Assembly: GCF_055900595.2 (NCBI RefSeq)
Contig: NZ_CM148325.1
Length of the DNA stretch: 64,000 nucleotides
Strand: one strand, 5' to 3'
Shown: positions 1,342 to 46,319 of the stretch, one piece after another
Layout: the number at the start of each line of letters is the position of its first letter
Position numbering within the stretch: position 1 is the stretch's first letter
Translations under genes and position numbers: made by a program
Notes under the pieces: model-generated
What the model was told of the DNA's origin: nothing
The model's input: only the letters and a program-made list of their open reading frames with translations
Databases searched by the model: none

Positions 1342-4300
1342 AACGTGTTCTCCGGTTGCGTTGAGGTTGCGCAAAGCCAGCGCGTAATGTGTTGCGCACA
1401 AGCCTGAACGTGGGGGGCTTCCATCATGATTTGCCAGTGGCTGGCTTCAATCACAGCGTCGTCGGCGTTGTTTATCCAGCCCTGCCACTCGGTTTCTGCT
1501 GGCGTCCAGCGCGCGGGTCTCCCGGCGGCATACACCATGAGACAGGGGACCGGAACGCTTTCGCCCGGCGTATGCTCAGTCAGTAAACGCAGCAGATGCT
1601 CGATGTTGTCGAGCCACGTTTCTGCCGCTTGCAGCGTCAGGTTTTGCGACACCATACCGACCGTTTTAGCGAGGCTGATAAAGTCGGCAAGCTGGCTGTC
1701 GGGCGTCTGATGGTCGAAATGTTCGGGCAGTGCCAGAGGCGTTTGTCCTTCGGCTAACAGGCGCAGCAGGGCCGCCCGGTTTTCGCAACAGAAATCCTGT
1801 CGGCACACGGGATCGATTAACACCATCCGAACCTGCTTGCCTTTGGCGTACAGGCGCTGTGCGGCGCCCGCCGCAAGAAACGCGCCATACGACCAACCCG
1901 CCAGCACATAAGGGCCGTGAGGCTGCTGACGACGGATGCACCCGACATACTCATCGATCATCTGGTCGAGCGTGGCAAAGTGCTGCGGCGATTTTGCTTG
2001 CAGGCCGAAAACGCGCCTGTTCAACGCGTTAGCGAGCGGCAGCCAGGCGCTGATATCGCCGTCTGAAGCGTGGAAGACAAACAGGGTTTCCTCACCGTCG
2101 CCCTGGCAAAGGGGTATCGGGTTGTCCTCTCCTGACGTAGCCGCCTGTAGATGGGCGCAGAAGTCGCTCAGCGTCGAATGGTTGAACAGATCCTGAAGGT
2201 TAGCCCTGGCAATCCCTCTCCGGTTTAGCTGCGCGACCATCCTTGTCGCCATCAGGCTGTCGCCGCCCAGTTCGAAAAAGTCGTGATGCCTTGCCACGGG
2301 GCGAGACAGCAGCGATTGCCAGAGTTCAGCCACCTGTTTTTCCAGCGCCGAATTCCCCCCGGCAACTGGCGTGGGTTTGGCTGGCTCAGTCGGCGCATCA
2401 GACGGGGCATGCAGCGGCGTAAATAACGCTTCTCTTTGCCGGATCTGTAAAATGGGCAGACCGGTGCCAAAGCGCTGCTGTAAATAGCGGCTCACGGCTT
2501 TTTTATCCGGGCGATTTACGCCAGGCGAACGCGCTACCAGCAGATGCTGGCGCAGCGGCGACGATTCCTGCGCGGGCCACGCCAGCTCGTTTGCAAACCC
2601 GGCCTGAACGAGAACCTCCTGCCATGCGGAGCGGGTGAGCATCGGTTTCTCATCCCGGCGGCGGAAATCGCGGTATCCGCTTAATCCCTCAATAAAGCCC
2701 ACGCTCGCCAGCTGGAATACGCTGTTTCGCTCCGTCGCTTCAACGATCAGCAAACGTCCGCCGGCTTTCAGCAACAGTTTTAATCTGCGCAACGTCTGGA
2801 CGACATGGCTGGCGTCGTGGAGCACATTGACGGCAACGATCAGGTCGTAACCCGCCTCCGGGTGGGCGGTGAAATCCAGCGGCTGGTTGATGTCGAACAA
2901 GGCATAAGACACCTGCGATTCATCATGGAAACGGGCTCTGGCGTCATTGAGGAACTGCGCGGAGACGTCCGTGAAGTGGTACGACTGCCGCGTGTTCCGC
3001 GTGGCCTTCAGCACCGGCGCGGTAGTGGCTGCGGTTCCGGCGCCAACCTCCAGAATCCGTTCTGCGCTGCACAAGGCGGCAATCTGCGCGGTATAGCGAT
3101 TCAGACAGGCGCTGGCGGGGTTGTCGCGATACAGCGCGTCGGTAACGCGATGCTGCTCGTTGAACAGCAATTCCAGCGGAGAACACTGCCCGGAGAAGAG
3201 GGCGTCGTGCCGGGCGATGCAGGTTTCCAGATACTGCGCCAGCGCCTGGCTCCATTGGCTTTGCGGGCACGCTTCCTGAGGCTCAGGAATCTCGCTGAGC
3301 GGAATACGGCAGCGCCAGCTTTCACCTTCGCGGATTAACCACTCTCTTTCCGTCAGACACTGTAGCCACTGGCGCAGCAGACGCTGGTGAGACGCTTGCG
3401 CGGACAGCGCCTGTACTACTGCGCTAAAGCGATGGGCGATCTCCGGCGTGGTAAACAGGCCGTGACGATTTAGCGTAGCCGCGATCCCCTGTAGCGCACG
3501 CGCCTCCAGCCAGCGCCAGGTCGCCTCCAGCTCATCAAGCTGCGCCTGCTCAGGCAACGGCAGCGCCAGTTGGGTAAGTTCGTGCTCATCAGGCATCGCC
3601 GCTGATGGCGACGGATCGTCGGCCATCACGATATCCAGCGTCAACGCGCCCTGTTCGGTTATTTCCGCTCTGGCCTGCCGGATGCCGGGGTATTCGAGCG
3701 TCGCCTGCTCAATATCCCGCAGGTCGTAGTCCGCCTGCGCGTTCAGCGGCCAGCGTCGGCGGGGAATGTGCCCGGCGATGCCGCTGGCGAGAGTCTTCAG
3801 GCTTTCAGGGGCGGCGATGACGGCTTGCAGGATGGCGCAATAGTCATTAAACATCGCCTCGGCAGCGCCGGGTTCCAGCACGTTGTCCATGCAGTACCAG
3901 CTAAACATCAACTCGCCGTCGCTCTCCATGACCTGATGATCCAGCCAGACCTGCGGCGTTTGCGTGAATACATAGCAGGGTTCGCCGAACAGATGGCTCA
4001 TCGCCTGATCGATAGTCATGCCTTCCAGCGTCATCCCCAGCATACTGGTAAACACTACCGGCATCAGCGGTTGACGTTGTGATCCGCGCAGGCGGCCCAG
4101 CTCACGGATCACCTCAACACCGTTCATTTCACTGTGCGCCATGTTTTGCCAGAGGCGCTGTTGGGTCTGTTGCATCTGCTCTTGCAACGTCACCGGCGCT
4201 GAGAAGTTAAAATCAACCAGCGTGACGGAGGTAAAATCACCAATCAACTGGTTGATTTGCGGATGGATCGGCTGGCGATTGAAGAACGTCAGGTTCAGCG

Positions 4301-7300
4301 TAAATGTTGTGGTACGGCTCCAGCGCTCAAGGGTGGCGGCAAACAGCGTGAGCAGCGCGGCAGACGGTGTGACGCCTTGCTGCTGCCAGCGCTGTTTCAC
4401 GGCCTGCCATTCTGTCTTGCCGATCGTCGATTTGAAGGTGGTGAAGTGTGGCGTTTCCGGGGGCGTCTCAACCACCGGCAGCTCTGGCGCTAAGGGCAGT
4501 TGCGGCAGTTTTTCCTGCCAGTAATCCCAGGCATCGTGCCATGCCGATGTCTGTCGGCGCGCCTGTTCAGCCATCACATAATCACGGAAGGTAATAGCGA
4601 GCGGCGCCAGCGTTTCACCGCGCCAGACCTGCGCCAGGTCGTCCATCATGACTTTAAAACTCTGCACATCAAACTGCAAAAGGTCGAGGTTCATATGCAG
4701 ACGGTAATGGCAATCGTCGATTTCGCTGACCACCAGCTCAAAAAGAGGCCACTGGTCGGCAGGCAAAACGCGATAGCTCAGTTCATGCCGCCGTTTTTCC
4801 AGCGCGATGCGCTGTTCTTCCGGGGAAAGCGCGCGCAGATCGTCACGCGGGATGTGATACTCCGGCGTTGTCGCCAGGATTCGCTGCTGCCCGTCGGCAT
4901 CAACCACCATACGCAACATATCGTGGCGTGCGATGAGCTGGTTCCATGCTTTCTCCAGTATGGCGAGATCGAACTCATCGTGGCGTTTATCCCACTCAAA
5001 CAGGACGTGACAGGCGACGCCGCCATAGCCAATGAGGTGGGTTCGCCCCAGCCAGTAGGCGTGCTGAATGGGCGTCAAAGGGAAGGGCGCATAACGCTCG
5101 TCGGCGTCGTGCCGCAACACTTCCGGCTGCGAAGCGGCAGGCGTCGCCTCTGGCTTAGAACAGATAAGCTGCGTGAGTCCATGAGGAGACAGATCCTGCC
5201 ACGCCCGTTCCGCATTGATGCGTACGCCCAGGTAGTGCTGAATATCGCTACTGAGTTCAAGGAAGAGCAGCGAGTCCATGCCGAGTTGCAACAGATCCTG
5301 GTTTGGATGCAGTGACGCCGGATCGCTCAGCCTTAGCTGAACCGCAATCCGCTTTTTCAGCCATGCCATCACCGCTGTTTCATCGCTCAGGCTGCCGTTA
5401 AAGGCGTTGTCATCAGCAGGAGGAATGACCGGCGTTGCGGCTTTTTCTGTGGCGCTGATGTTAAACAGGGCCTGTTGTAACGGGGGCATTTTGTCGGTAA
5501 AAACGCGCATCGCCAGTCGCCACGGGGCGCCGCGCATCACCGCCTGTTCCAGGTGCCAGCAGCCTTCGGCATCGCTTAACGCGCCCATACCTCGGCTGGC
5601 GAGCGTCGCCAGCATTTCCGGCGTGGCCGCCCGACCGCTTTCTCCCCATGCGCCCCAGGCGACAGAGAGCGTTTTCGGCGCATCAAGGGTGGAAAACTGC
5701 TGGGCCAGCCCGTCCAGGTAGCCGCAGGCCAGCGCATGGGCGCTCTGACCCGGCGCGCCGAGGGTGGCGGCAGCGGAAGAGTAGAGAATAAGATAGCGTC
5801 CGTCGTGGTTGCGCAGGGTTTGCACCAGCTGGCTTGCCGCCTGCGCTTTTACCGCGAAAACGGCAGCCAGCTGGTGGTCATCAAGCTCCTGCAAGGGCGC
5901 GTCAGCCAATACGCCAGCGGCATGAATCGCTCCGGCAATGCCGCCGTTGGCCGCCAGATCGTCAAGAACCGTGGCCAGTTGCCCGGCATCGCCCACATCA
6001 CAACGGCAGACGCGCGTCTGCCCGCCCTCCACGTCGCGTAGCCATGACTCATCCACGCGCGGCGCCAGCAGGGCGATGCGTCGCGCCCCTTTTTCTCTGA
6101 GCCAGTTCACGGCAAGGCGGCCTAATCCGCCAAACGCTCCGGTCACCAGATGCCAGCGGCTATCGCCGGTAAACACGTTTGCCGGTAATTCAGCGGCGCA
6201 TCCCGTATTGGGCGACAGTGAAGGAAGCCAAAGGGTGTCACCCCGTGCGGCGAGCCAGCGCTGTGATAGTGAGACTGCACTCAACCCTTGATGCAGCGTT
6301 TCCCACGGGGTGTTTTCGGCGAGATCGATGGCGGCAAGCAACCGTTCCGGCTGTTCGTTGGCCGCGACGCGAAGCAAGGCCCATAGCGCGTGATGGGATG
6401 CAGAGAGTGCTTCATTTTCCTCGACTCGCCACGCGCGGCGAGTAACCACAATCAATCCGGCTGCGCTGGCGGTGAGCGCTGCTATCACTTTCTCCGCTAA
6501 GGCCAGCGTATCCTCGCTCTCCTCAACAATCATCAGTCGTGAAGAGGCGTGCGGATCGTGAATGATGCCGTATTGCGCCAGCTCGTCGCTGCGCGCAAGC
6601 GTACCGGCGCTGAAGCTAAAGGTAAGCGGATGGTCAATGCTGGCGACGTTGAGGGGCGTCCAGCGCCATTGATAATGCGTTTGCGGCGCAGGAAGAGGCG
6701 CGGCGGGCGATAGCGGCAGCCACTCGCCAGCAGGATGACGGGCTTCAACGCGCATCTGACCGCGGGAAAAGGCTTCGTTTTGCCAGCTTAAGCGAACCTT
6801 CCCTAGCCACTCCGGGGCGGCGACGGGGGGCGGTTCCACAGGCAGAGCGTCGCCATGACGCTGTGAAAGCAGACGCCAGGCCTCCTGCCAGCGGGCGTTA
6901 AACCGTTCGGGCTGACCTGCGCAATCAGACCAGTCGGCGAGATAATCACCGTTATCCGTCAGCGCCTGCCCCAACACGGGTTCTGATGGCGCGGTGAATG
7001 TTACGGCGCTAACCGCCTGACCGGGCAGCGTGGCGAGAATGATATGTTCGCTCATCCCGGCGGTCGGGCTGCCATCCTGCGGTAGCCACGCCACTTTGCT
7101 GAATCCGGCGTGGCGGCACTGTTGTTGCCACTGAGCGGTGGTGAGGAATAACTCACCTTCGCGGGCGTCGAGATCCTGTAGCGGAAGAACCAGCGGGCCG
7201 AAAACGAAGTCAAACAGACGCATTGGCTGGGTGATTTCGCGCATCAGCAGGCGCCCGCCCGGCTTGAGCAGGGGGCGCAGATTATCGAGCGTGCGGCCAA

Positions 7301-34092: not shown

Positions 34093-34944
34093 TTAACCCG
34101 CGTAAGCTGCCAGCATTTCCTGCGCCGCCAGTTTACCCAACGCATTCGCTGAGAAAGGACTGTCGCCGGTGAGAAGTTTACGGTCCTTATGTACTCGCCC
34201 GGTGATGTCGTCATTAATGATGTTCATGCCCATTTTCTTCAGTTCTTCGCCGAAGTACCAGTTGAGATGACCCGGCATATAGCCTATCTCTGGCGTTTGT
34301 TTGTCAGCGGCGTCTGGGAATGCACAAATGGAATAACCATTCAGTGGGTTATCGCCGTGGCGAAGCGCCAGAAAAGCCGCCGGGCCGTGGCAAAGGGAGA
34401 TAACAAAACGGTCATTTTTGATTGCCCACTGTAAAGCAGCAGCCACGTCCTGGCTTTCTGGTAAACCAATAAGTGCGCCATGACCACCAGGAACAAAGAT
34501 TGCTGCATATTCGCTATCAGCGTTGAGGCTGGCGACAACATCCGCGAGTTTCTTCGGATTGCGGAACAACGATTTATGCTGCTCAAAGAATGGCATTACT
34601 TTTTCATCTTTGTGCGGCATAGCCCAGTATTCAAACTTGGTCATCAGACCGGAAATGGTCGCCACTTCGAATTCGAAACCTGCAGCATGGAGATGATACA
34701 ACGGCAGCAACGTTTCAATCGGATGGTTACCAGTCGAGAACAGTTTTCCGTTATCGGTCGGCAAATAACGTTCGTCCGCGGCGATCACCAGAATTTTATG
34801 CTTACCGCGATACGGTTTTGGATAGTCCACGCCATCAAGATCAGAGACGGGACTGGTATATTGGCTAAGCGAATATTCTGAAGGGAAGAATGCATTATCT
34901 TCAGCAATATCGACCTGCGGATTTTTACTTGTTTGAACAGTCAT
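34093..34944 (-). CDS. hchA: Hsp31 glyoxalase III / protein deglycase (DJ-1/PfpI family)
   Basis: 283-aa ORF; DJ-1/PfpI-family fold including the conserved SLCHGPAAF segment. Confidence 0.9.
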   Translation of the reverse strand: MTVQTSKNPQVDIAEDNAFFPSEYSLSQYTSPVSDLDGVDYPKPYRGKHKILVIAADERYLPTDNGKLFSTGNHPIETLLPLYHLHAAGFEFEVATISGLMTKFEYWAMPHKDEKVMPFFEQHKSLFRNPKKLADVVASLNADSEYAAIFVPGGHGALIGLPESQDVAAALQWAIKNDRFVISLCHGPAAFLALRHGDNPLNGYSICAFPDAADKQTPEIGYMPGHLNWYFGEELKKMGMNIINDDITGRVHKDRKLLTGDSPFSANALGKLAAQEMLAAYAG

Positions 34945-35316: not shown

Positions 35317-35371
35317 GGTGATGCTGCCAACTTACTGATTTAGTGTATGATGGTGTTTTTGAGGTGCTCCA

Positions 35372-35647
35372 GTGGCTTCTGTTTCTATCAGCTGTCCCTC
35401 CTGTTCAGCTACTGACGGGGTGGTGCGTAACGGCAAAAGCACCGCCGGACATCAGCGCTATCTCTGCTCTCACTGCCGTAAAACATGGCAACTGCAGTTC
35501 ACTTACACCGCTTCTCAACCCGGTACGCACCAGAAAATCATTGATATGGCCATGAATGGCGTTGGATGCCGGGCAACTGCCCGCATTATGGGCGTTGGCC
35601 TCAACACGATTTTACGTCACTTAAAAAACTCAGGCCGCAGTCGGTAA
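35372..35647 (+). CDS. insA: IS1 InsA
   Basis: 91-aa [46 protein letters not shown]... identical in character to IS1 InsA. Confidence 0.9.
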
Positions 35648-36069
35648 CCTCGCGCATACAGCCGGGCAGTGACGTCATCGTCTGCGCGGAAATGGACGAA
35701 CAGTGGGGCTATGTCGGGGCTAAATCGCGCCAGCGCTGGCTGTTTTACGCGTATGACAGGCTCCGGAAGACGGTTGTTGCGCACGTATTCGGTGAACGCA
35801 CTATGGCGACGCTGGGGCGTCTTATGAGCCTGCTGTCACCCTTTGACGTGGTGATATGGATGACGGATGGCTGGCCGCTGTATGAATCCCGCCTGAAGGG
35901 AAAGCTGCACGTAATCAGCAAGCGATATACGCAGCGAATTGAGCGGCATAACCTGAATCTGAGGCAGCACCTGGCACGGCTGGGACGGAAGTCGCTGTCG
36001 TTCTCAAAATCGGTGGAGCTGCATGACAAAGTCATCGGGCATTATCTGAACATAAAACACTATCAATAA
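35566..36069 (+). CDS. insB: IS1 InsB reading frame (expressed as InsAB transposase by -1 frameshift)
   Basis: 167-aa ORF overlapping the insA 3-prime end in the -1 frame, the standard IS1 organisation. Confidence 0.85.
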
Positions 36070-36084
36070 GTTGGAGTCATTACC

Positions 36085-36313: not shown

Positions 36314-37429
36314 TTAGAACTGGTAGACGATACCAACTGCAAACTGGTCATCAGCTGCTGCGCCAGTAATGGCGGCGTCATCTTTATCCAGCATGTTGAA
36401 TTTGTATGCAGTATAAACGTTCATGTTCTTATTAAAGTAGTACCAGGTACCAACTTCAATGTAGTTCACACGGTCAGCGTCAACATATCTATGTCCAGGT
36501 ACCCCTTTGATATCTTTACCTTTAGAGTACACATAACCTAAGGACGGACGCAGACCAAAGTCGAATTGATACTGAACAACCGCTTCAAAGTTCTGGGTTT
36601 CATTGATAAGTTGATCACGCATTATTGTATTGCCTTCTCGATCGGCAACACCTGTATCAATAGAACCCGGAGTCATATTACGAGTTTCGCCGTACATTAC
36701 AGCTGCGTAGACATTGTTCGCGTCATACTTTGCAGCCAACGACCACAGTTCAGCATTTGAACCGTTTCCATCGGCAACTTGATCGTTGGTGCGATCAGAT
36801 TTGCTATATGCACCAACGATACCAAAACCATTGATGTTATAGTCTACAGACAACGCATAGCCGTCACCATTTTGTTTCTTAGTGCTACGGTTGCTGTTTT
36901 TGCCTTGGTACTGAATCGCAAAATCAAGACCATCAACCAGGCCAAAGAAATCATAGTTACGGTAGGTTGCAACACCGTTGGTACGACCATTCATGAAGTT
37001 GTCAGCGGAAGCCCAGGAATCGCCACCCCATTCAACTAACATATCGGTATAAGCTGCGGCATCATAAGCAACACCGTAGTTACGGCCATAGTCAAATGAT
37101 CCTAACTCGTTATATTTCAAACCGGCGAAGGTTAAACGGGTTTTTTCCTGGTTTTCACCTTCGGGCTTGCTGGCGTCGAGGTTGTATTCAAACTGACCAA
37201 AACCAGTCAGTTCGCTGGTGATTTGGGTTTCACCTTTAACACCGAAACGAGCATAGGAGGTATCTTCGTTTTCGCTGTTATTATCATCAGTATTTGACCA
37301 GATGCGTTCGCCAACCATCTTGCCGTAGAAATCAACTTTATTGCCATCTTTATTATAAATTTCAGCCGCATTTGCTGCGCCAGCAACTAATAACGCCGGG
37401 ACCAGCATTGCCAGAACTTTTCTTTTCAT
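36314..37429 (-). CDS. yedS: Outer membrane general porin (OmpC/OmpF/PhoE family), apparently intact
   Basis: Track ORF 36314..37459; likely start [21 protein letters not shown] (signal peptide) at 37429; C-terminal ...GIVYQF typical of general porins. Confidence 0.8.
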
Positions 37430-37976
37430 TATGTATTCCCTTGTGATTATAATCTTCATGAATATATCAATAAGTGCCGTTATCCAAAAAAAAGCACATT
37501 TGGATACTATTCTATGAAGTTCATTTTATTTTAAGGATTACATGTAACAAATGTATTTAAAAGATTTCAAAATGTTTCTAATCTATTTAATATAATTCGG
37601 GATTATGAATTCTGAATATAAACATTCATGAATATTATAAATGCATATCAATAAGTTATGAGTTGAGCAGAAAGATAGGGGGTATCAATGATTGTTGCGC
37701 TAAACACCTGGTGTGATCACGCGCACATTAATGAAGGAATAAAAAAAGCCGGCATCATGCCGGCCCCAAAAATATAAACAAGACGATAAAAGGCTAATAA
37801 CGTAAGCATCATGACACAGAATAATAAAAAGGTATAATTGTAATCAGTGCTAATATATTGATTAAATGAATTAATAAAGCCGATATCAAAGATAAATAAA
37901 ATCGCTCAAAACGATTTTTCCTGTATTCACTGCCGTTGCGCAAAAATTATCTATTTGTTCAAAAAATGAGTGAGTC

Positions 37977-38360
37977 TTGACTGGCTCATCCAATGTGGAA
38001 AAATGTGACTTTTATCACATAATAGTACTAAGTCTGAATTTTCCGGGTTATCTCAAAATGGAATACGGTTCGACAAAGATGGAAGAGAGACTCTCTCGCA
38101 GCCCTGGCGGCAAACTGGCTTTGTGGGCTTTCTATACATGGTGTGGCTATTTCGTCTGGGCAATGGCGCGTTACATCTGGGTGATGAGCCGGATCCCCGA
38201 TGCCCCCGTGTCGGGATTTGAAAGCGATTTAGGCTCTACCGCGGGAAAGTGGTTAGGGGCACTGGTCGGATTTTTATTTATGGCTCTGGTCGGGGCATTG
38301 TTAGGCAGCATTGCCTGGTACACCCGACCTCGTCCCGCACGTAGCAGACGCTATGAATAA
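37977..38360 (+). CDS. yedR: Small inner membrane protein YedR (start uncertain)
   Basis: ORF with two hydrophobic segments; synteny with yedJ and dcm; the true start may be an internal GTG or ATG. Confidence 0.6.
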   Translation: MTGSSNVEKCDFYHIIVLSLNFPGYLKMEYGSTKMEERLSRSPGGKLALWAFYTWCGYFVWAMARYIWVMSRIPDAPVSGFESDLGSTAGKWLGALVGFLFMALVGALLGSIAWYTRPRPARSRRYE

Positions 38361-38399
38361 AAACTGCTAAGGTGGCGACTCTTTGGCAACGGAGCGCGT

Positions 38400-39095
38400 A
38401 TGGACTTACAACACTGGCAGGCACAGTTCGAAAACTGGTTGAAAAACCATCATCAGCACCAGGACGCGGCCCATGACGTGTGTCATTTTCGCCGCGTCTG
38501 GGCTACGGCACAGAAGCTGGCGGCAGATGACGATGTCGATATGCTGGTGATTTTAACCGCCTGTTATTTTCACGATATTGTGAGCCTGGCGAAAAATCAT
38601 CCGCAAAGGCAGCGTTCTTCAATCCTGGCGGCAGAAGAGACGCGTCGCCTGCTCCGTGAAGAGTTCGAGCAATTTCCGGCGGAGAAAATCGAGGCCGTTT
38701 GTCATGCCATTGCCGCTCACAGTTTCAGCGCGCAAATCGCCCCCTTAACAACGGAAGCTAAAATTGTCCAGGATGCGGATCGGCTGGAAGCCCTGGGGGC
38801 GATTGGCCTGGCGCGCGTGTTTGCCGTTTCAGGGGCATTGGGCGTGGCGCTGTTTGATGGTGAAGATCCGTTCGCACAGCATCGCCCGCTTGATGATAAA
38901 CGCTACGCGCTGGATCATTTCCAGACTAAGTTGCTGAAGCTACCGCAAACCATGCAAACCGCAAGAGGCAAGCAGCTGGCGCAGCACAACGCGCATTTTT
39001 TAGTCGAGTTTATGGCGAAGCTCAGTGCCGAACTGGCGGGGGAGAATGAAGGTGTCGATCACAAGGTGATAGATGCGTTTTCATCCGCTGGCTGA
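38400..39095 (+). CDS. yedJ: HD-domain phosphohydrolase
   Basis: 231-aa ORF with HD motif (HFRRV ... HDIV ... DADRLEALG). Confidence 0.8.
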
Positions 39096-39161
39096 GCGCG
39101 TGGCCCTAAATGGCTGTAATTATGTTAACCTGTCGGCCATCTCAGATGGCCGGTGAAATCT

Positions 39162-40580
39162 ATGCAGGAAAATATATCAGTAACCGATTCATACAGCACC
39201 GGGAATGCCGCACAGGCAATGCTGGAGAAACTGCTGCAAATTTATGATGTTAAAACGTTGGTGGCGCAGCTTAATGGTGTAGGTGAGAATCACTGGAGCG
39301 CGGCAATTTTAAAACGTGCGCTGGCGAATGACTCGGCATGGCACCGTTTAAGTGAGAAAGAGTTCGCCCATCTGCAAACGTTATTACCCAAACCACCGGC
39401 ACATCATCCGCATTATGCGTTTCGCTTTATCGATCTATTCGCCGGAATTGGCGGCATCTGTCGCGGTTTTGAATCGATTGGCGGACAGTGCGTGTTTACC
39501 AGCGAATGGAACAAACATGCGGTACGCACTTATAAAGCCAACCATTATTGCGATCCGGCGACGCATCATTTTAATGAAGATATCCGCGACATCACCCTCA
39601 GCCATAAAGAAGGCGTGAGTGATGAGGCGGCGGCGGAACATATTCGTCAACACATTCCTGAACACGATGTTTTACTGGCCGGTTTCCCTTGTCAGCCATT
39701 TTCGCTGGCTGGCGTATCGAAAAAGAACTCGCTCGGGCGGGCGCACGGTTTTGCCTGCGATACCCAGGGCACGCTGTTTTTTGATGTGGTACGCATTATC
39801 GACGCGCGTCGTCCGGCGATGTTTGTGCTCGAAAACGTCAAAAACCTGAAAAGTCACGACCAGGGTAAAACGTTCCGCATCATCATGCAGACGCTGGACG
39901 AACTGGGCTATGACGTGGCTGATGCAGAAGATAATGGGCCAGACGATCCGAAAATCATCGACGGCAAACATTTTCTGCCGCAGCACCGTGAACGCATCGT
40001 GCTGGTGGGTTTTCGTCGCGATCTGAATCTGAAAGCCGATTTTACCCTGCGTGATATCAGCGAATGTTTCCCTGCGCAGCGAGTGACGCTGGCGCAGCTG
40101 TTGGACCCGATGGTCGAGGCGAAATATATCCTGACGCCGGTGCTGTGGAAGTACCTCTATCGATATGCGAAAAAACATCAGGCGCGCGGTAACGGCTTCG
40201 GTTATGGAATGGTTTATCCGAACAATCCGCAAAGCGTCACGCGTACGCTGTCTGCGCGTTATTACAAAGATGGCGCGGAAATTTTAATCGATCGCGGCTG
40301 GGATATGGCCAAAGGTGAGAAAGACTTTGACGATCCGCAGAATCAGCAACATCGTCCACGTCGGTTAACGCCTCGGGAATGCGCGCGCTTAATGGGTTTT
40401 GAAGCGCCGGGAGAAGCGAAATTCCGCATTCCGGTTTCGGACACTCAGGCCTATCGCCAGTTCGGTAACTCGGTGGTCGTGCCGGTCTTTGCCGCGGTGG
40501 CAAAACTGCTTGAGCCAAAAATCAAACAGGCGGTGGCGTTGCGTCAGCAAGAGGCACAACATGGCCGACGTTCACGATAA
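39162..40580 (+). CDS. dcm: DNA cytosine-5 methyltransferase (CCWGG)
   Basis: C5-MTase motifs FAGIGG (motif I), GFPCQPFS (motif IV, catalytic Cys) and ENV (motif VI); start MQENISVTD at 39162. Confidence 0.9.
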
Positions 40581-41031
40581 GGCCACTCGCAGCAAAAATA
40601 TGCGCGCGATTGCCACGCGTTATACGGCGATAGAGAAGCGCCTCGCCAGTCTGTTAACCGGGCAGGGCCTGGCGTTTCGCGTTCAGGACGCCAGTCTGCC
40701 CGGACGTCCGGATTTTGTCGTTGATGAATATTGTTGCGTGATATTTACCCACGGCTGCTTCTGGCACCATCATCACTGCTATCTGTTTAAAGTGCCTGCG
40801 ACTCGAACCGAGTTCTGGCTGGAGAAGATAGGTAAAAATGTTGAGCGCGATCGCCGCGATATCAGTCGCTTGCAGGAACTCGGCTGGCGCGTATTGATTG
40901 TCTGGGAGTGCGCGTTACGTGGGCGCGAGAAGCTGACGGATGAAGCGCTTAGCGAGCGTCTGGAAGAGTGGATCTGCGGCGAAGGTGCCAGCGCGCAGAT
41001 CGACACGCAGGGGATTCATTTACTCGCTTGA
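40561..41031 (+). CDS. vsr: Very-short-patch repair endonuclease
   Basis: Start [20 protein letters not shown] overlaps the 3-prime end of dcm; 156 aa; the track ORF 40399..41031 is an upstream over-extension. Confidence 0.9.
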
Positions 41032-41940
41032 TGCGTCCTGAATAACTGGCGTAACTACGGGTTTTGCCGGGAAGAGATATTTTCCCAACGTGACCAGTAC
41101 CACCGCGAAGACAATTACGCCGAGCGCCAGCCATTCAATCTTCGACAGCGTTTCTCCGCCCAGTCCCGTACCCAGCAAGACCGCGACCACCGGGTTAACG
41201 TAGGCGTAACTGGTGGCGAGAGCCGGACTGACGTTGCGGATTAAATACATATAAGCGTTAATGGCGATAATCGAACCAAACAGCGCCAGATAGCCGACCG
41301 CAAGGAAGCCTGAAAGGGAAGGGAGCGCCGTCAGTTTTTCACCTGCAATCATCGACGCGATCATTAACACCACGCCTGCCGCCAGCATCTCAATCGCACC
41401 CGCCATCATCCCTACAGGTAAGGTAATGCGCGAGCCATAAACCGAGCCAAACGCCCAGCTAATCGAGCCGATTAAAATCAGAATCGCGCCCCACGGATTG
41501 CCGCTTAAATTTCCACCGCTATTGAGCATGATGATTCCGGCAAGCCCAATGGCAATACCCACCCATTCCAGTTTGCGCGTTTTAATGCCAAACAGGCGGC
41601 TGAAGCACAGGGTAAAGAGGGGCACGGTTGCAACCACTACGGCGGCGATGCCGGAAGGAACATTTTGATGTTCGGCAACCGTCACCATGCCATTACCGAC
41701 AGCCAGCAATAACAGGCCAATCAGCGCGGCATTGAGCAGAGGACGTAGCGGGGGGAGTTTGTGTCCGCGCAGTAGTAAAAATGCCAGCAATAAAATACCG
41801 GCTGCCAGGAATCGAACGCCCGCCATCATTAACGGAGGCCAGCTTTCCACGCCAATCCGAATGACAAAATAGGTTGAGCCCCAAATGATATACAACGCAA
41901 ACAGCGCGCCAAAAAGCGGTAATAACTGGCGGAAACGCAT
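41020..41940 (-). CDS. yedA: EamA/DMT-family transporter
   Basis: 306-aa ORF with about 10 TM segments; two EamA repeats. Confidence 0.85.
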   Translation of the reverse strand: MRFRQLLPLFGALFALYIIWGSTYFVIRIGVESWPPLMMAGVRFLAAGILLLAFLLLRGHKLPPLRPLLNAALIGLLLLAVGNGMVTVAEHQNVPSGIAAVVVATVPLFTLCFSRLFGIKTRKLEWVGIAIGLAGIIMLNSGGNLSGNPWGAILILIGSISWAFGSVYGSRITLPVGMMAGAIEMLAAGVVLMIASMIAGEKLTALPSLSGFLAVGYLALFGSIIAINAYMYLIRNVSPALATSYAYVNPVVAVLLGTGLGGETLSKIEWLALGVIVFAVVLVTLGKYLFPAKPVVTPVIQDASSE

Positions 41941-46232: not shown

Positions 46233-46319
46233 AACACATCAGATTTCCTGGTGTAACGAATTTTTTAAGTGCTTCTTGCTTAAGCAAGTTTCATCCCGAC
46301 CCCCTCAGGGTCGGGATTT
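46233..46319 (+). ncRNA. dsrA: DsrA small regulatory RNA with intrinsic terminator
   Basis: Sequence AACACATCAGATTTCCTGGTGTAACGAATTTTTTAAGTGCTTCTTGCTTAAGCAAGTTTCATCCCGACCCCCTCAGGGTCGGGATTT matches DsrA; the terminal hairpin is followed by a T-run. Confidence 0.9.

Follow-up and report, generated by a model that had tools for sequence, protein, structure and literature searches.

The overlapping dcm and vsr genes of an Escherichia coli chromosome: a standard arrangement with a 20-nt overlap shared across most Enterobacteriaceae

Do the overlapping dcm and vsr genes found in this DNA represent the known coupling of a cytosine methylase with its repair endonuclease, and is the pair intact? The dcm-vsr overlap is a classic case of a mutagenic modification enzyme hard-wired to its antidote. 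The open reading frames at the locus were read directly in the 64,000-nucleotide stretch of DNA that was analysed (the window). The original prediction had put the overlap at about 20 bp, with vsr starting inside the 3′ end of dcm in a different frame; the coordinates bore this out to the base. The following features were read:

39162–40580, + strand: dcm, 472 aa, from the ATG at 39162 to the stop codon TAA at 40578–40580.
40561–41031, + strand: vsr, 156 aa, from the ATG at 40561 to the stop codon TGA at 41029–41031.
40561–40580, + strand: dcm/vsr overlap, exactly 20 nt.
40549–40554, + strand: Shine-Dalgarno-like AAGAGG for vsr, 6 nt before its ATG and within the dcm coding sequence.

The vsr frame was +1 relative to dcm ((40561 − 39162) mod 3 = 1). 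The bases of the overlap encode both the Dcm tail Q-H-G-R-R-S-R-stop and the Vsr start M-A-D-V-H-D-K, and the dcm TAA is made from the vsr codons GAT-AAG (Asp6-Lys7). An in-frame GTG at 39153 lies upstream of the annotated dcm ATG, and the ORF finder starts dcm there. The PGAP annotation of a 100%-identical genome gave matching relative coordinates for dcm, vsr and yedA (dcm 3063–4481, vsr 4462–4932), and the K-12 MG1655 annotation showed the same 20-nt overlap (vsr 2030448–2030918, dcm 2030899–2032317; b1961/b1960). Over positions 40480–40600 (121 bases) the junction was identical to that of K-12, and a 161-nt junction alignment against K-12 showed a sole difference, at 40621. Co-directional overlaps are common in operons. 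Because neighbouring overlaps of 1–14 nt were found in annotated relatives of the window, an overlap alone is not beyond chance; the conservation of exactly 20 nt is. The dcm/vsr overlap was the longest co-directional one among the annotated genes of the neighbourhood.

The identity of the locus was then established by comparison with complete genomes. Across positions 39100–41100 (2 kb), 25 complete E. coli chromosomes matched the window at 100% identity. Of 5426 complete genomes of E. coli, 5358 contained the dcm-vsr locus (39100–41100 at 80% coverage or more), showing that the window is E. coli chromosome at dcm-vsr. The gene order drpB-yedJ-dcm-vsr, followed by a convergent yedA, was the same in the window and in K-12. 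At the 3′ end of the pair, one further overlap was read:

41020–41031, vsr on the + strand and yedA on the − strand: convergent 3′ overlap of 12 nt (yedA 41020–41940, −), the same in K-12 and in strain H1827/12.

On the + strand between vsr and yedA, no terminator-like hairpin was called. The K-12 dcm-vsr pair (M.EcoKDcm/V.EcoKDcm) thus resembles that of the window in its genes, neighbours, 20-nt +1 overlap, junction and 12-nt vsr/yedA tail, and differs from it by 13 nucleotides over the 2 kb. At the protein level the window shows R100C, T384K and L393Q in Dcm, and D21Y, R58C and T131S in Vsr. The overlap is the textbook E. coli arrangement: intact, ordinary, already known and present in nearly all E. 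coli.

The identities of the two proteins were assessed with family models, solved structures and orthologues, and residue conservation was scored over orthologues from 60 (Dcm) to 80 (Vsr) enterobacterial species. The Dcm of the window matched the Pfam models PF00145 (257 bits, cut-off 22) and PF18284 (70.7 bits, cut-off 25) and the NCBIfam models NF007772 (949 bits, cut-off 710) and TIGR00675 (347 bits). It was identical to K-12 Dcm at 469 of 472 residues (99%) and near-identical to two Dcm-type methylases of solved structure, 3ME5 and 3LX6. The catalytic C177 of the PCQ motif, motif I FAGIGG (A94/G95/G97/G98), E224-N225-V226 of motif VI and Q274/R276/R278 of motif VIII (QxRxR) were all present, and all were the same in 60 of 60 orthologues. 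At position 100, the window has Cys where all 60 enterobacterial orthologues have Arg. This residue aligns with R25 of M.HhaI, right after the AdoMet-binding glycine loop, and we know of no catalytic or AdoMet-contact role for the position equivalent to M.HhaI R25. R100 is conserved within the subfamily and is not a recognised catalytic residue, so Cys100 leaves the assignment to the family standing, though full activity is less certain. By its sequence, the protein is an orthologue of Dcm (M.EcoKDcm), a C5 cytosine DNA methyltransferase, with predicted methylation of CCWGG. Dcm methylation is reported as conserved in E. coli in PMC9210283 (citing Militello et al. 2012).

The Vsr of the window likewise scored well above the cut-offs of its family models (PF03852, 126.8 bits against 27; TIGR00632, 176.5 bits against 97.85) and was identical to K-12 Vsr at 153 of 156 residues (98%). 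In the PDB it matched 1CW0 (E = 1.2e-103) and also 1VSR; the crystallised protein was 98% identical. It keeps D51, T63, H64 and H69 together with D97, the active-site and metal residues, as well as C66, H71, C73 and C117, the Zn ligands, and F67, W68 and W86, the intercalating aromatics. These 12 residues were conserved in 69–80 of the 80 orthologues. [quoted passage not shown] Vsr is known to nick T:G mismatches in CTWGG/CCWGG with the help of MutS and MutL, to act mainly in stationary phase, so that VSP repair is separated from mismatch repair by growth phase, and to be mutagenic in excess (PMC2715241).

Previous work gives these two identities their functional context. According to PMC4444293, PMC4924334 and PMC12907096, which draw on Dar & Bhagwat 1993 and Sohail et al. 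1990, dcm partly overlaps vsr and both genes lie in one operon. Vsr repairs the T:G mismatches that are left by 5-methylcytosine deamination at CCWGG (PMC2715241). Strains with dcm-6, a nonsense mutation at codon 45 of dcm, lose vsr activity too, as stated in PMC4444293 citing Dar & Bhagwat 1993. The locus had been described beforehand as the known coupling of the methylase with the T:G repair endonuclease, and this description was supported, both in the identities of the proteins and in the operon, overlap and dcm-6 effect related in PMC4444293, PMC4924334 and PMC2715241. We estimate the probability at roughly 92% that the window carries the canonical chromosomal E. coli dcm-vsr operon, with Vsr synthesis translationally coupled to dcm. 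The gene identities, the geometry, the identity of the junction to K-12, the catalytic residues and the deep conservation of the 20-nt overlap were all observed directly.

The pair had also been called apparently intact. This held for the frames, which carry neither frameshift nor stop, and for the catalytic residues; it was weakened by R100C and D21Y, which fall at otherwise invariant or near-invariant positions. The substitution sites are 39459 (dcm codon 100), 40621 (vsr codon 21) and 40732 (vsr codon 58). Vsr residue 21 was Asp in 78 of 80 orthologues and is Tyr in the window; Vsr position 58 was R, Q, H or D among orthologues and never Cys, the residue of the window. The remaining differences from K-12 fall where orthologues vary, at residues 384 and 393 of Dcm and at residue 131 of Vsr. 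The exact 61-mer around Dcm codon 100 was found in 31 of 5426 complete E. coli genomes and that around Vsr codon 21 in 48 of 5426, giving the clade a share of ∼0.5–0.9% of complete E. coli genomes (<1% with surrounding sequence). The nearest non-clade alleles were 9–10 SNPs away, and R100C, D21Y and R58C were the sole amino-acid changes in dcm and vsr relative to them. All three are derived in the clade when compared with the nearest relatives and K-12.

These substitutions raise an alternative, namely that two intact frames encode an attenuated or inactive pair, R100C weakening or abolishing CCWGG methylation and D21Y and R58C weakening repair, by joint decay or down-tuning. The conservation of Arg at 100 and of Asp at 21, the rarity of the surrounding 61-mers and the derived state of all three changes speak for it, and a rationale for joint attenuation comes from Caulobacter, where Vsr does harm in the absence of the methylase that it is paired with (PMC12907096). 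However, both exact protein alleles were found on at least 1000 contigs each, and the 25 identical complete genomes came from humans, pigs, poultry, cattle and seawater, indicating that the clade is successful. The absence of frameshifts and stops points the same way, and the clade-specific changes in dcm and vsr (3 non-synonymous and 5 synonymous) give no sign of relaxed selection. Moreover, Dcm position 100 corresponds to R25 of M.HhaI, which is not known to be a catalytic residue or an AdoMet contact. We consider attenuation unlikely; the frames are intact, and the Dcm-Vsr pair is probably functional. That a natural lineage has had CCWGG methylation and VSP repair attenuated or lost together, with frames and overlap intact, is an improbable outcome. 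If true, such a joint loss would represent an early step towards the state reached elsewhere in Enterobacteriaceae, where vsr stands without dcm or beside dcm remnants.

Traces of VSP repair were also looked for in the sequence composition and in recent substitutions. The window contains 172 CCWGG sites against 23 CTWGG and CCWAG sites together, and CTAG was observed 13 times against 43.8 expected. Under a maximal-order Markov model, CCAGG occurred at 0.60 and CCTGG at 0.73 of expectation, so CCWGG is not over-represented relative to its own tetramers. The ratio of CCWGG to product sites and the depletion of CTAG agree, if loosely, with a long-term VSP bias. For the substitutions, strain 203740 and K-12 served to polarise the SNPs in 31 kb. 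Of the 137 window-derived SNPs, none fell at the methylated C of CCWGG (∼0.75 expected), and 1 of 166 did so in the control lineage. The polarised SNP test over these 31 kb, low in power, gave no sign of a VSP-defect signature; the lack of an excess of CCWGG-to-CTWGG changes counts, within the same low power, against attenuation.

We return to the reading of the locus as an intact, translationally coupled dcm-vsr operon. Since the junction in the window is identical to that of K-12, the same translational coupling should apply. Co-transcription, and the loss of Vsr when dcm translation stops early, would carry over to the window by analogy from what the literature reports for the identical K-12 junction. 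In the mechanism that we propose, a single mRNA starting upstream of dcm would give rise to the two proteins. Dcm would methylate the inner C of CCWGG, and Vsr would nick 5′ of the T in the T:G mismatch that arises from deaminated 5-methylcytosine, leading to very-short-patch repair back to C. With the vsr ATG and AAGAGG placed within the last dcm codons, ribosomes ending dcm would stop 17 nt past the vsr ATG. Coupling may then proceed through ribosome delivery or hand-over and re-initiation near the dcm stop, in addition to a genuine Shine-Dalgarno sequence. The output of Vsr would thereby be tied to dcm translation, linking repair to the mutational risk and keeping Vsr low.

A hairpin that hides the vsr ribosome-binding site was considered as another basis for coupling and rejected as unsupported. 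The minimum-free-energy fold of 40500–40620 encloses the Shine-Dalgarno sequence, the ATG and the dcm stop, with z = −1.5 and 19 of 200 shuffles folding as well, and RNAalifold over 33 species found no conserved helix over the vsr ribosome-binding site and no covarying pairs. Because the hairpin was supported neither by an excess over shuffles nor by covariation, ribosome hand-over and re-initiation would be the favoured route. A GAG-rich purine block at Shine-Dalgarno distance from vsr was kept in nearly all of the 33 aligned species. The vsr gene has a good Shine-Dalgarno sequence of its own, and some independent initiation is possible. In the search for an internal vsr promoter, a sigma-70 consensus scan of the + strand over 38024–41860 gave no match, although this crude scan also misses the dcm promoter. 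The absence of a sigma-70 match inside dcm is consistent with co-transcription and goes no further.

The depth of conservation was examined by scanning species-representative genomes with Vsr, which gave 80 loci at 76–97% identity, and by locating the Dcm homologue and its stop at each. The overlap was exactly 20 nt in 49 of the 80 species, with dcm near-complete or flank-truncated, corresponding to 49 of the 64 species loci with a Dcm homologue near vsr and to 49 of the 58 directly adjacent dcm-vsr pairs. Genera with 20 nt include Escherichia, Citrobacter, Salmonella, Klebsiella, Enterobacter, Lelliottia, Trabulsiella and Intestinirhabdus, among others. In 8 species the overlap was 14, 17 or 35 nt. 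Klebsiella indica (locus L030, ∼2300–2520) carries a dcm remnant of ∼50 aa at 59% identity next to an intact vsr, and this remnant has kept the same TAA, 20 nt into vsr. A gap replaces the overlap in Buttiauxella sp. B2 and Cedecea colo, where dcm ends 35 nt and 12 nt before vsr, respectively. The dcm genes that end before vsr lie in the survey loci as follows:

L079, 1014–2465: dcm ending before vsr.
L083, 1010–2488: dcm ending before vsr.

Four Buttiauxella loci (L052, L056, L061 and L072) have ∼0.9–1 kb between dcm and vsr; the insert in L052 includes a 172-aa ORF on the minus strand, which had no Pfam match. In 16 species vsr was found without a Dcm homologue in the 2.5 kb upstream. These include Kosakonia, Phytobacter, Pseudescherichia vulneris, Klebsiella oxytoca, K. 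spallanzanii and others, and vsr directly follows either a yedJ-like HD-domain gene or a GntR regulator in them. The loci are:

L024, L035, L036, L038, L039, L041, L042 and L047: vsr alone, at ∼2501.
L055, L065–L068, L071, L078 and L081: vsr alone, at ∼2501.

The 20-nt geometry is thus kept across most Enterobacteriaceae, but several genera have lost it or separated the two genes. Since it is found in most species, with gaps or losses in others, the overlap is ancestral and strongly retained, yet dispensable. Within the overlap, vsr third-codon positions vary among species and the Dcm tail varies with them, indicating that the overlap is constrained by the Vsr N-terminus and not by protein-level conservation of the Dcm tail.

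The survey bears on a second alternative. Here the overlap would be an accident of history that regulates nothing, and ribosomes would initiate on vsr independently, at its own ribosome-binding site. Several of its features would fit such an accident. On this view, the 20-nt geometry would persist only because the dcm stop is embedded in the conserved Vsr Asp6-Lys7 (GAT-AAR). Conservation of the Vsr N-terminus MADVHDK holds the TAA in place, and the Dcm tail, lying beyond the last conserved methylase motif, is free to vary with the third-codon positions of vsr. The Shine-Dalgarno sequence of vsr is good and properly spaced, and there are species with separated dcm and vsr, or with vsr alone behind its own GGAG/GAGG site. 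On the other hand, the loss of vsr activity in dcm-6, mutated at codon 45, reflects polarity or coupling and not independence (PMC4444293, citing Dar & Bhagwat 1993), and that K-12 junction is identical to the one in the window, while the exact 20 nt recurs in 49 of 58 directly adjacent pairs. An accident of this kind is very unlikely in our estimate. The weakest alternative, a programmed +1 frameshift in the overlap that yields a Dcm-Vsr fusion protein, has a negligible chance of being right and was dismissed for want of a slippery motif: although the vsr frame, +1 relative to dcm, is already open at 40399, ahead of the ATG (a 210-aa ORF), the overlap has neither a slippery nor a hungry-codon motif, Vsr has its own ATG and Shine-Dalgarno sequence, the solved Vsr chain 1CW0 begins at residue 2 of the window ORF, and the separated-gene and vsr-only species show Vsr working as a free protein.

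The coupled dcm-vsr operon was compared with related systems. Coupled operon pairs in general resemble it in having the downstream start and Shine-Dalgarno sequence inside the upstream coding sequence and the upstream stop just past that start; they typically overlap by 1 or 4 nt (ATGA/TGATG), whereas dcm and vsr overlap by 20 nt. In Neisseria, V.NgoAXIII and V.NgoAXIV are also T:G nicking enzymes paired with m5C methylases, the product of which deaminates to T (PMC6116569), but their targets are different and their genes adjoin the methylase genes without being described as overlapping. The Caulobacter pair VsrA-ScmA similarly combines a T:G nicking enzyme with a cytosine-5 methylase (PMC12907096); in contrast to dcm-vsr, it has another target sequence and its two genes are unlinked.

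Upstream of the pair, the region between yedJ and dcm was read and compared across species. The leader contains the following features:

39120–39161, + strand: yedJ-dcm intergenic leader, from the sequence and the cross-species comparison of upstream regions.
39120–39134, + strand: block TTATGTTAACCTGTC, candidate −10 region of a dcm-vsr promoter, at which the sigma-70 scan made no call.
39134–39152, + strand: palindrome CGGCCATCTCAGATGGCCG, 19 nt, perfect 9+1+9, 10 nt before the dcm ATG.
39152–39156, + strand: GGTGA, ribosome-binding site of dcm, from the sequence.

Escherichia, Citrobacter and Salmonella share block TTATGTTAACCTGTC ahead of dcm, and Enterobacter has a related TGTGGTAATCTGT there; the block may serve as the −10 element of the dcm-vsr promoter. 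The palindrome CGGCCATCTCAGATGGCCG, perfect or with one mismatch, was found only in Escherichia loci in the cross-species comparison of upstream regions, and chance alone would be expected to yield a palindrome of about this size in 64 kb. Its role as a conserved operator was rejected on account of this Escherichia-only distribution and near-chance frequency.

Other features of the window were recorded as well. A yersiniabactin high-pathogenicity island, with irp2, ybtA, ybtPQXS and an integrase, makes up the first ∼26 kb (∼1–26000) and is inserted at a tRNA-Asn (26155–26230, −). The island has a GC content of 0.589, higher than that of the core part of the window (0.488). An IS1 copy (35317–36084) lies between hchA (34093–34944, −) and a 381-aa ORF (36314–37459, −), which occupies the place of the porin gene yedS. 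This porin gene is a pseudogene in K-12. In H1827/12, the IS1 at the hchA-yedS locus is opposite in orientation, hchA is truncated and the porin is lost. Two small RNAs, rseX (37741–37830, −; 95 bits) and DsrA (46233–46319, +; 102 bits), were each found at their K-12 positions.
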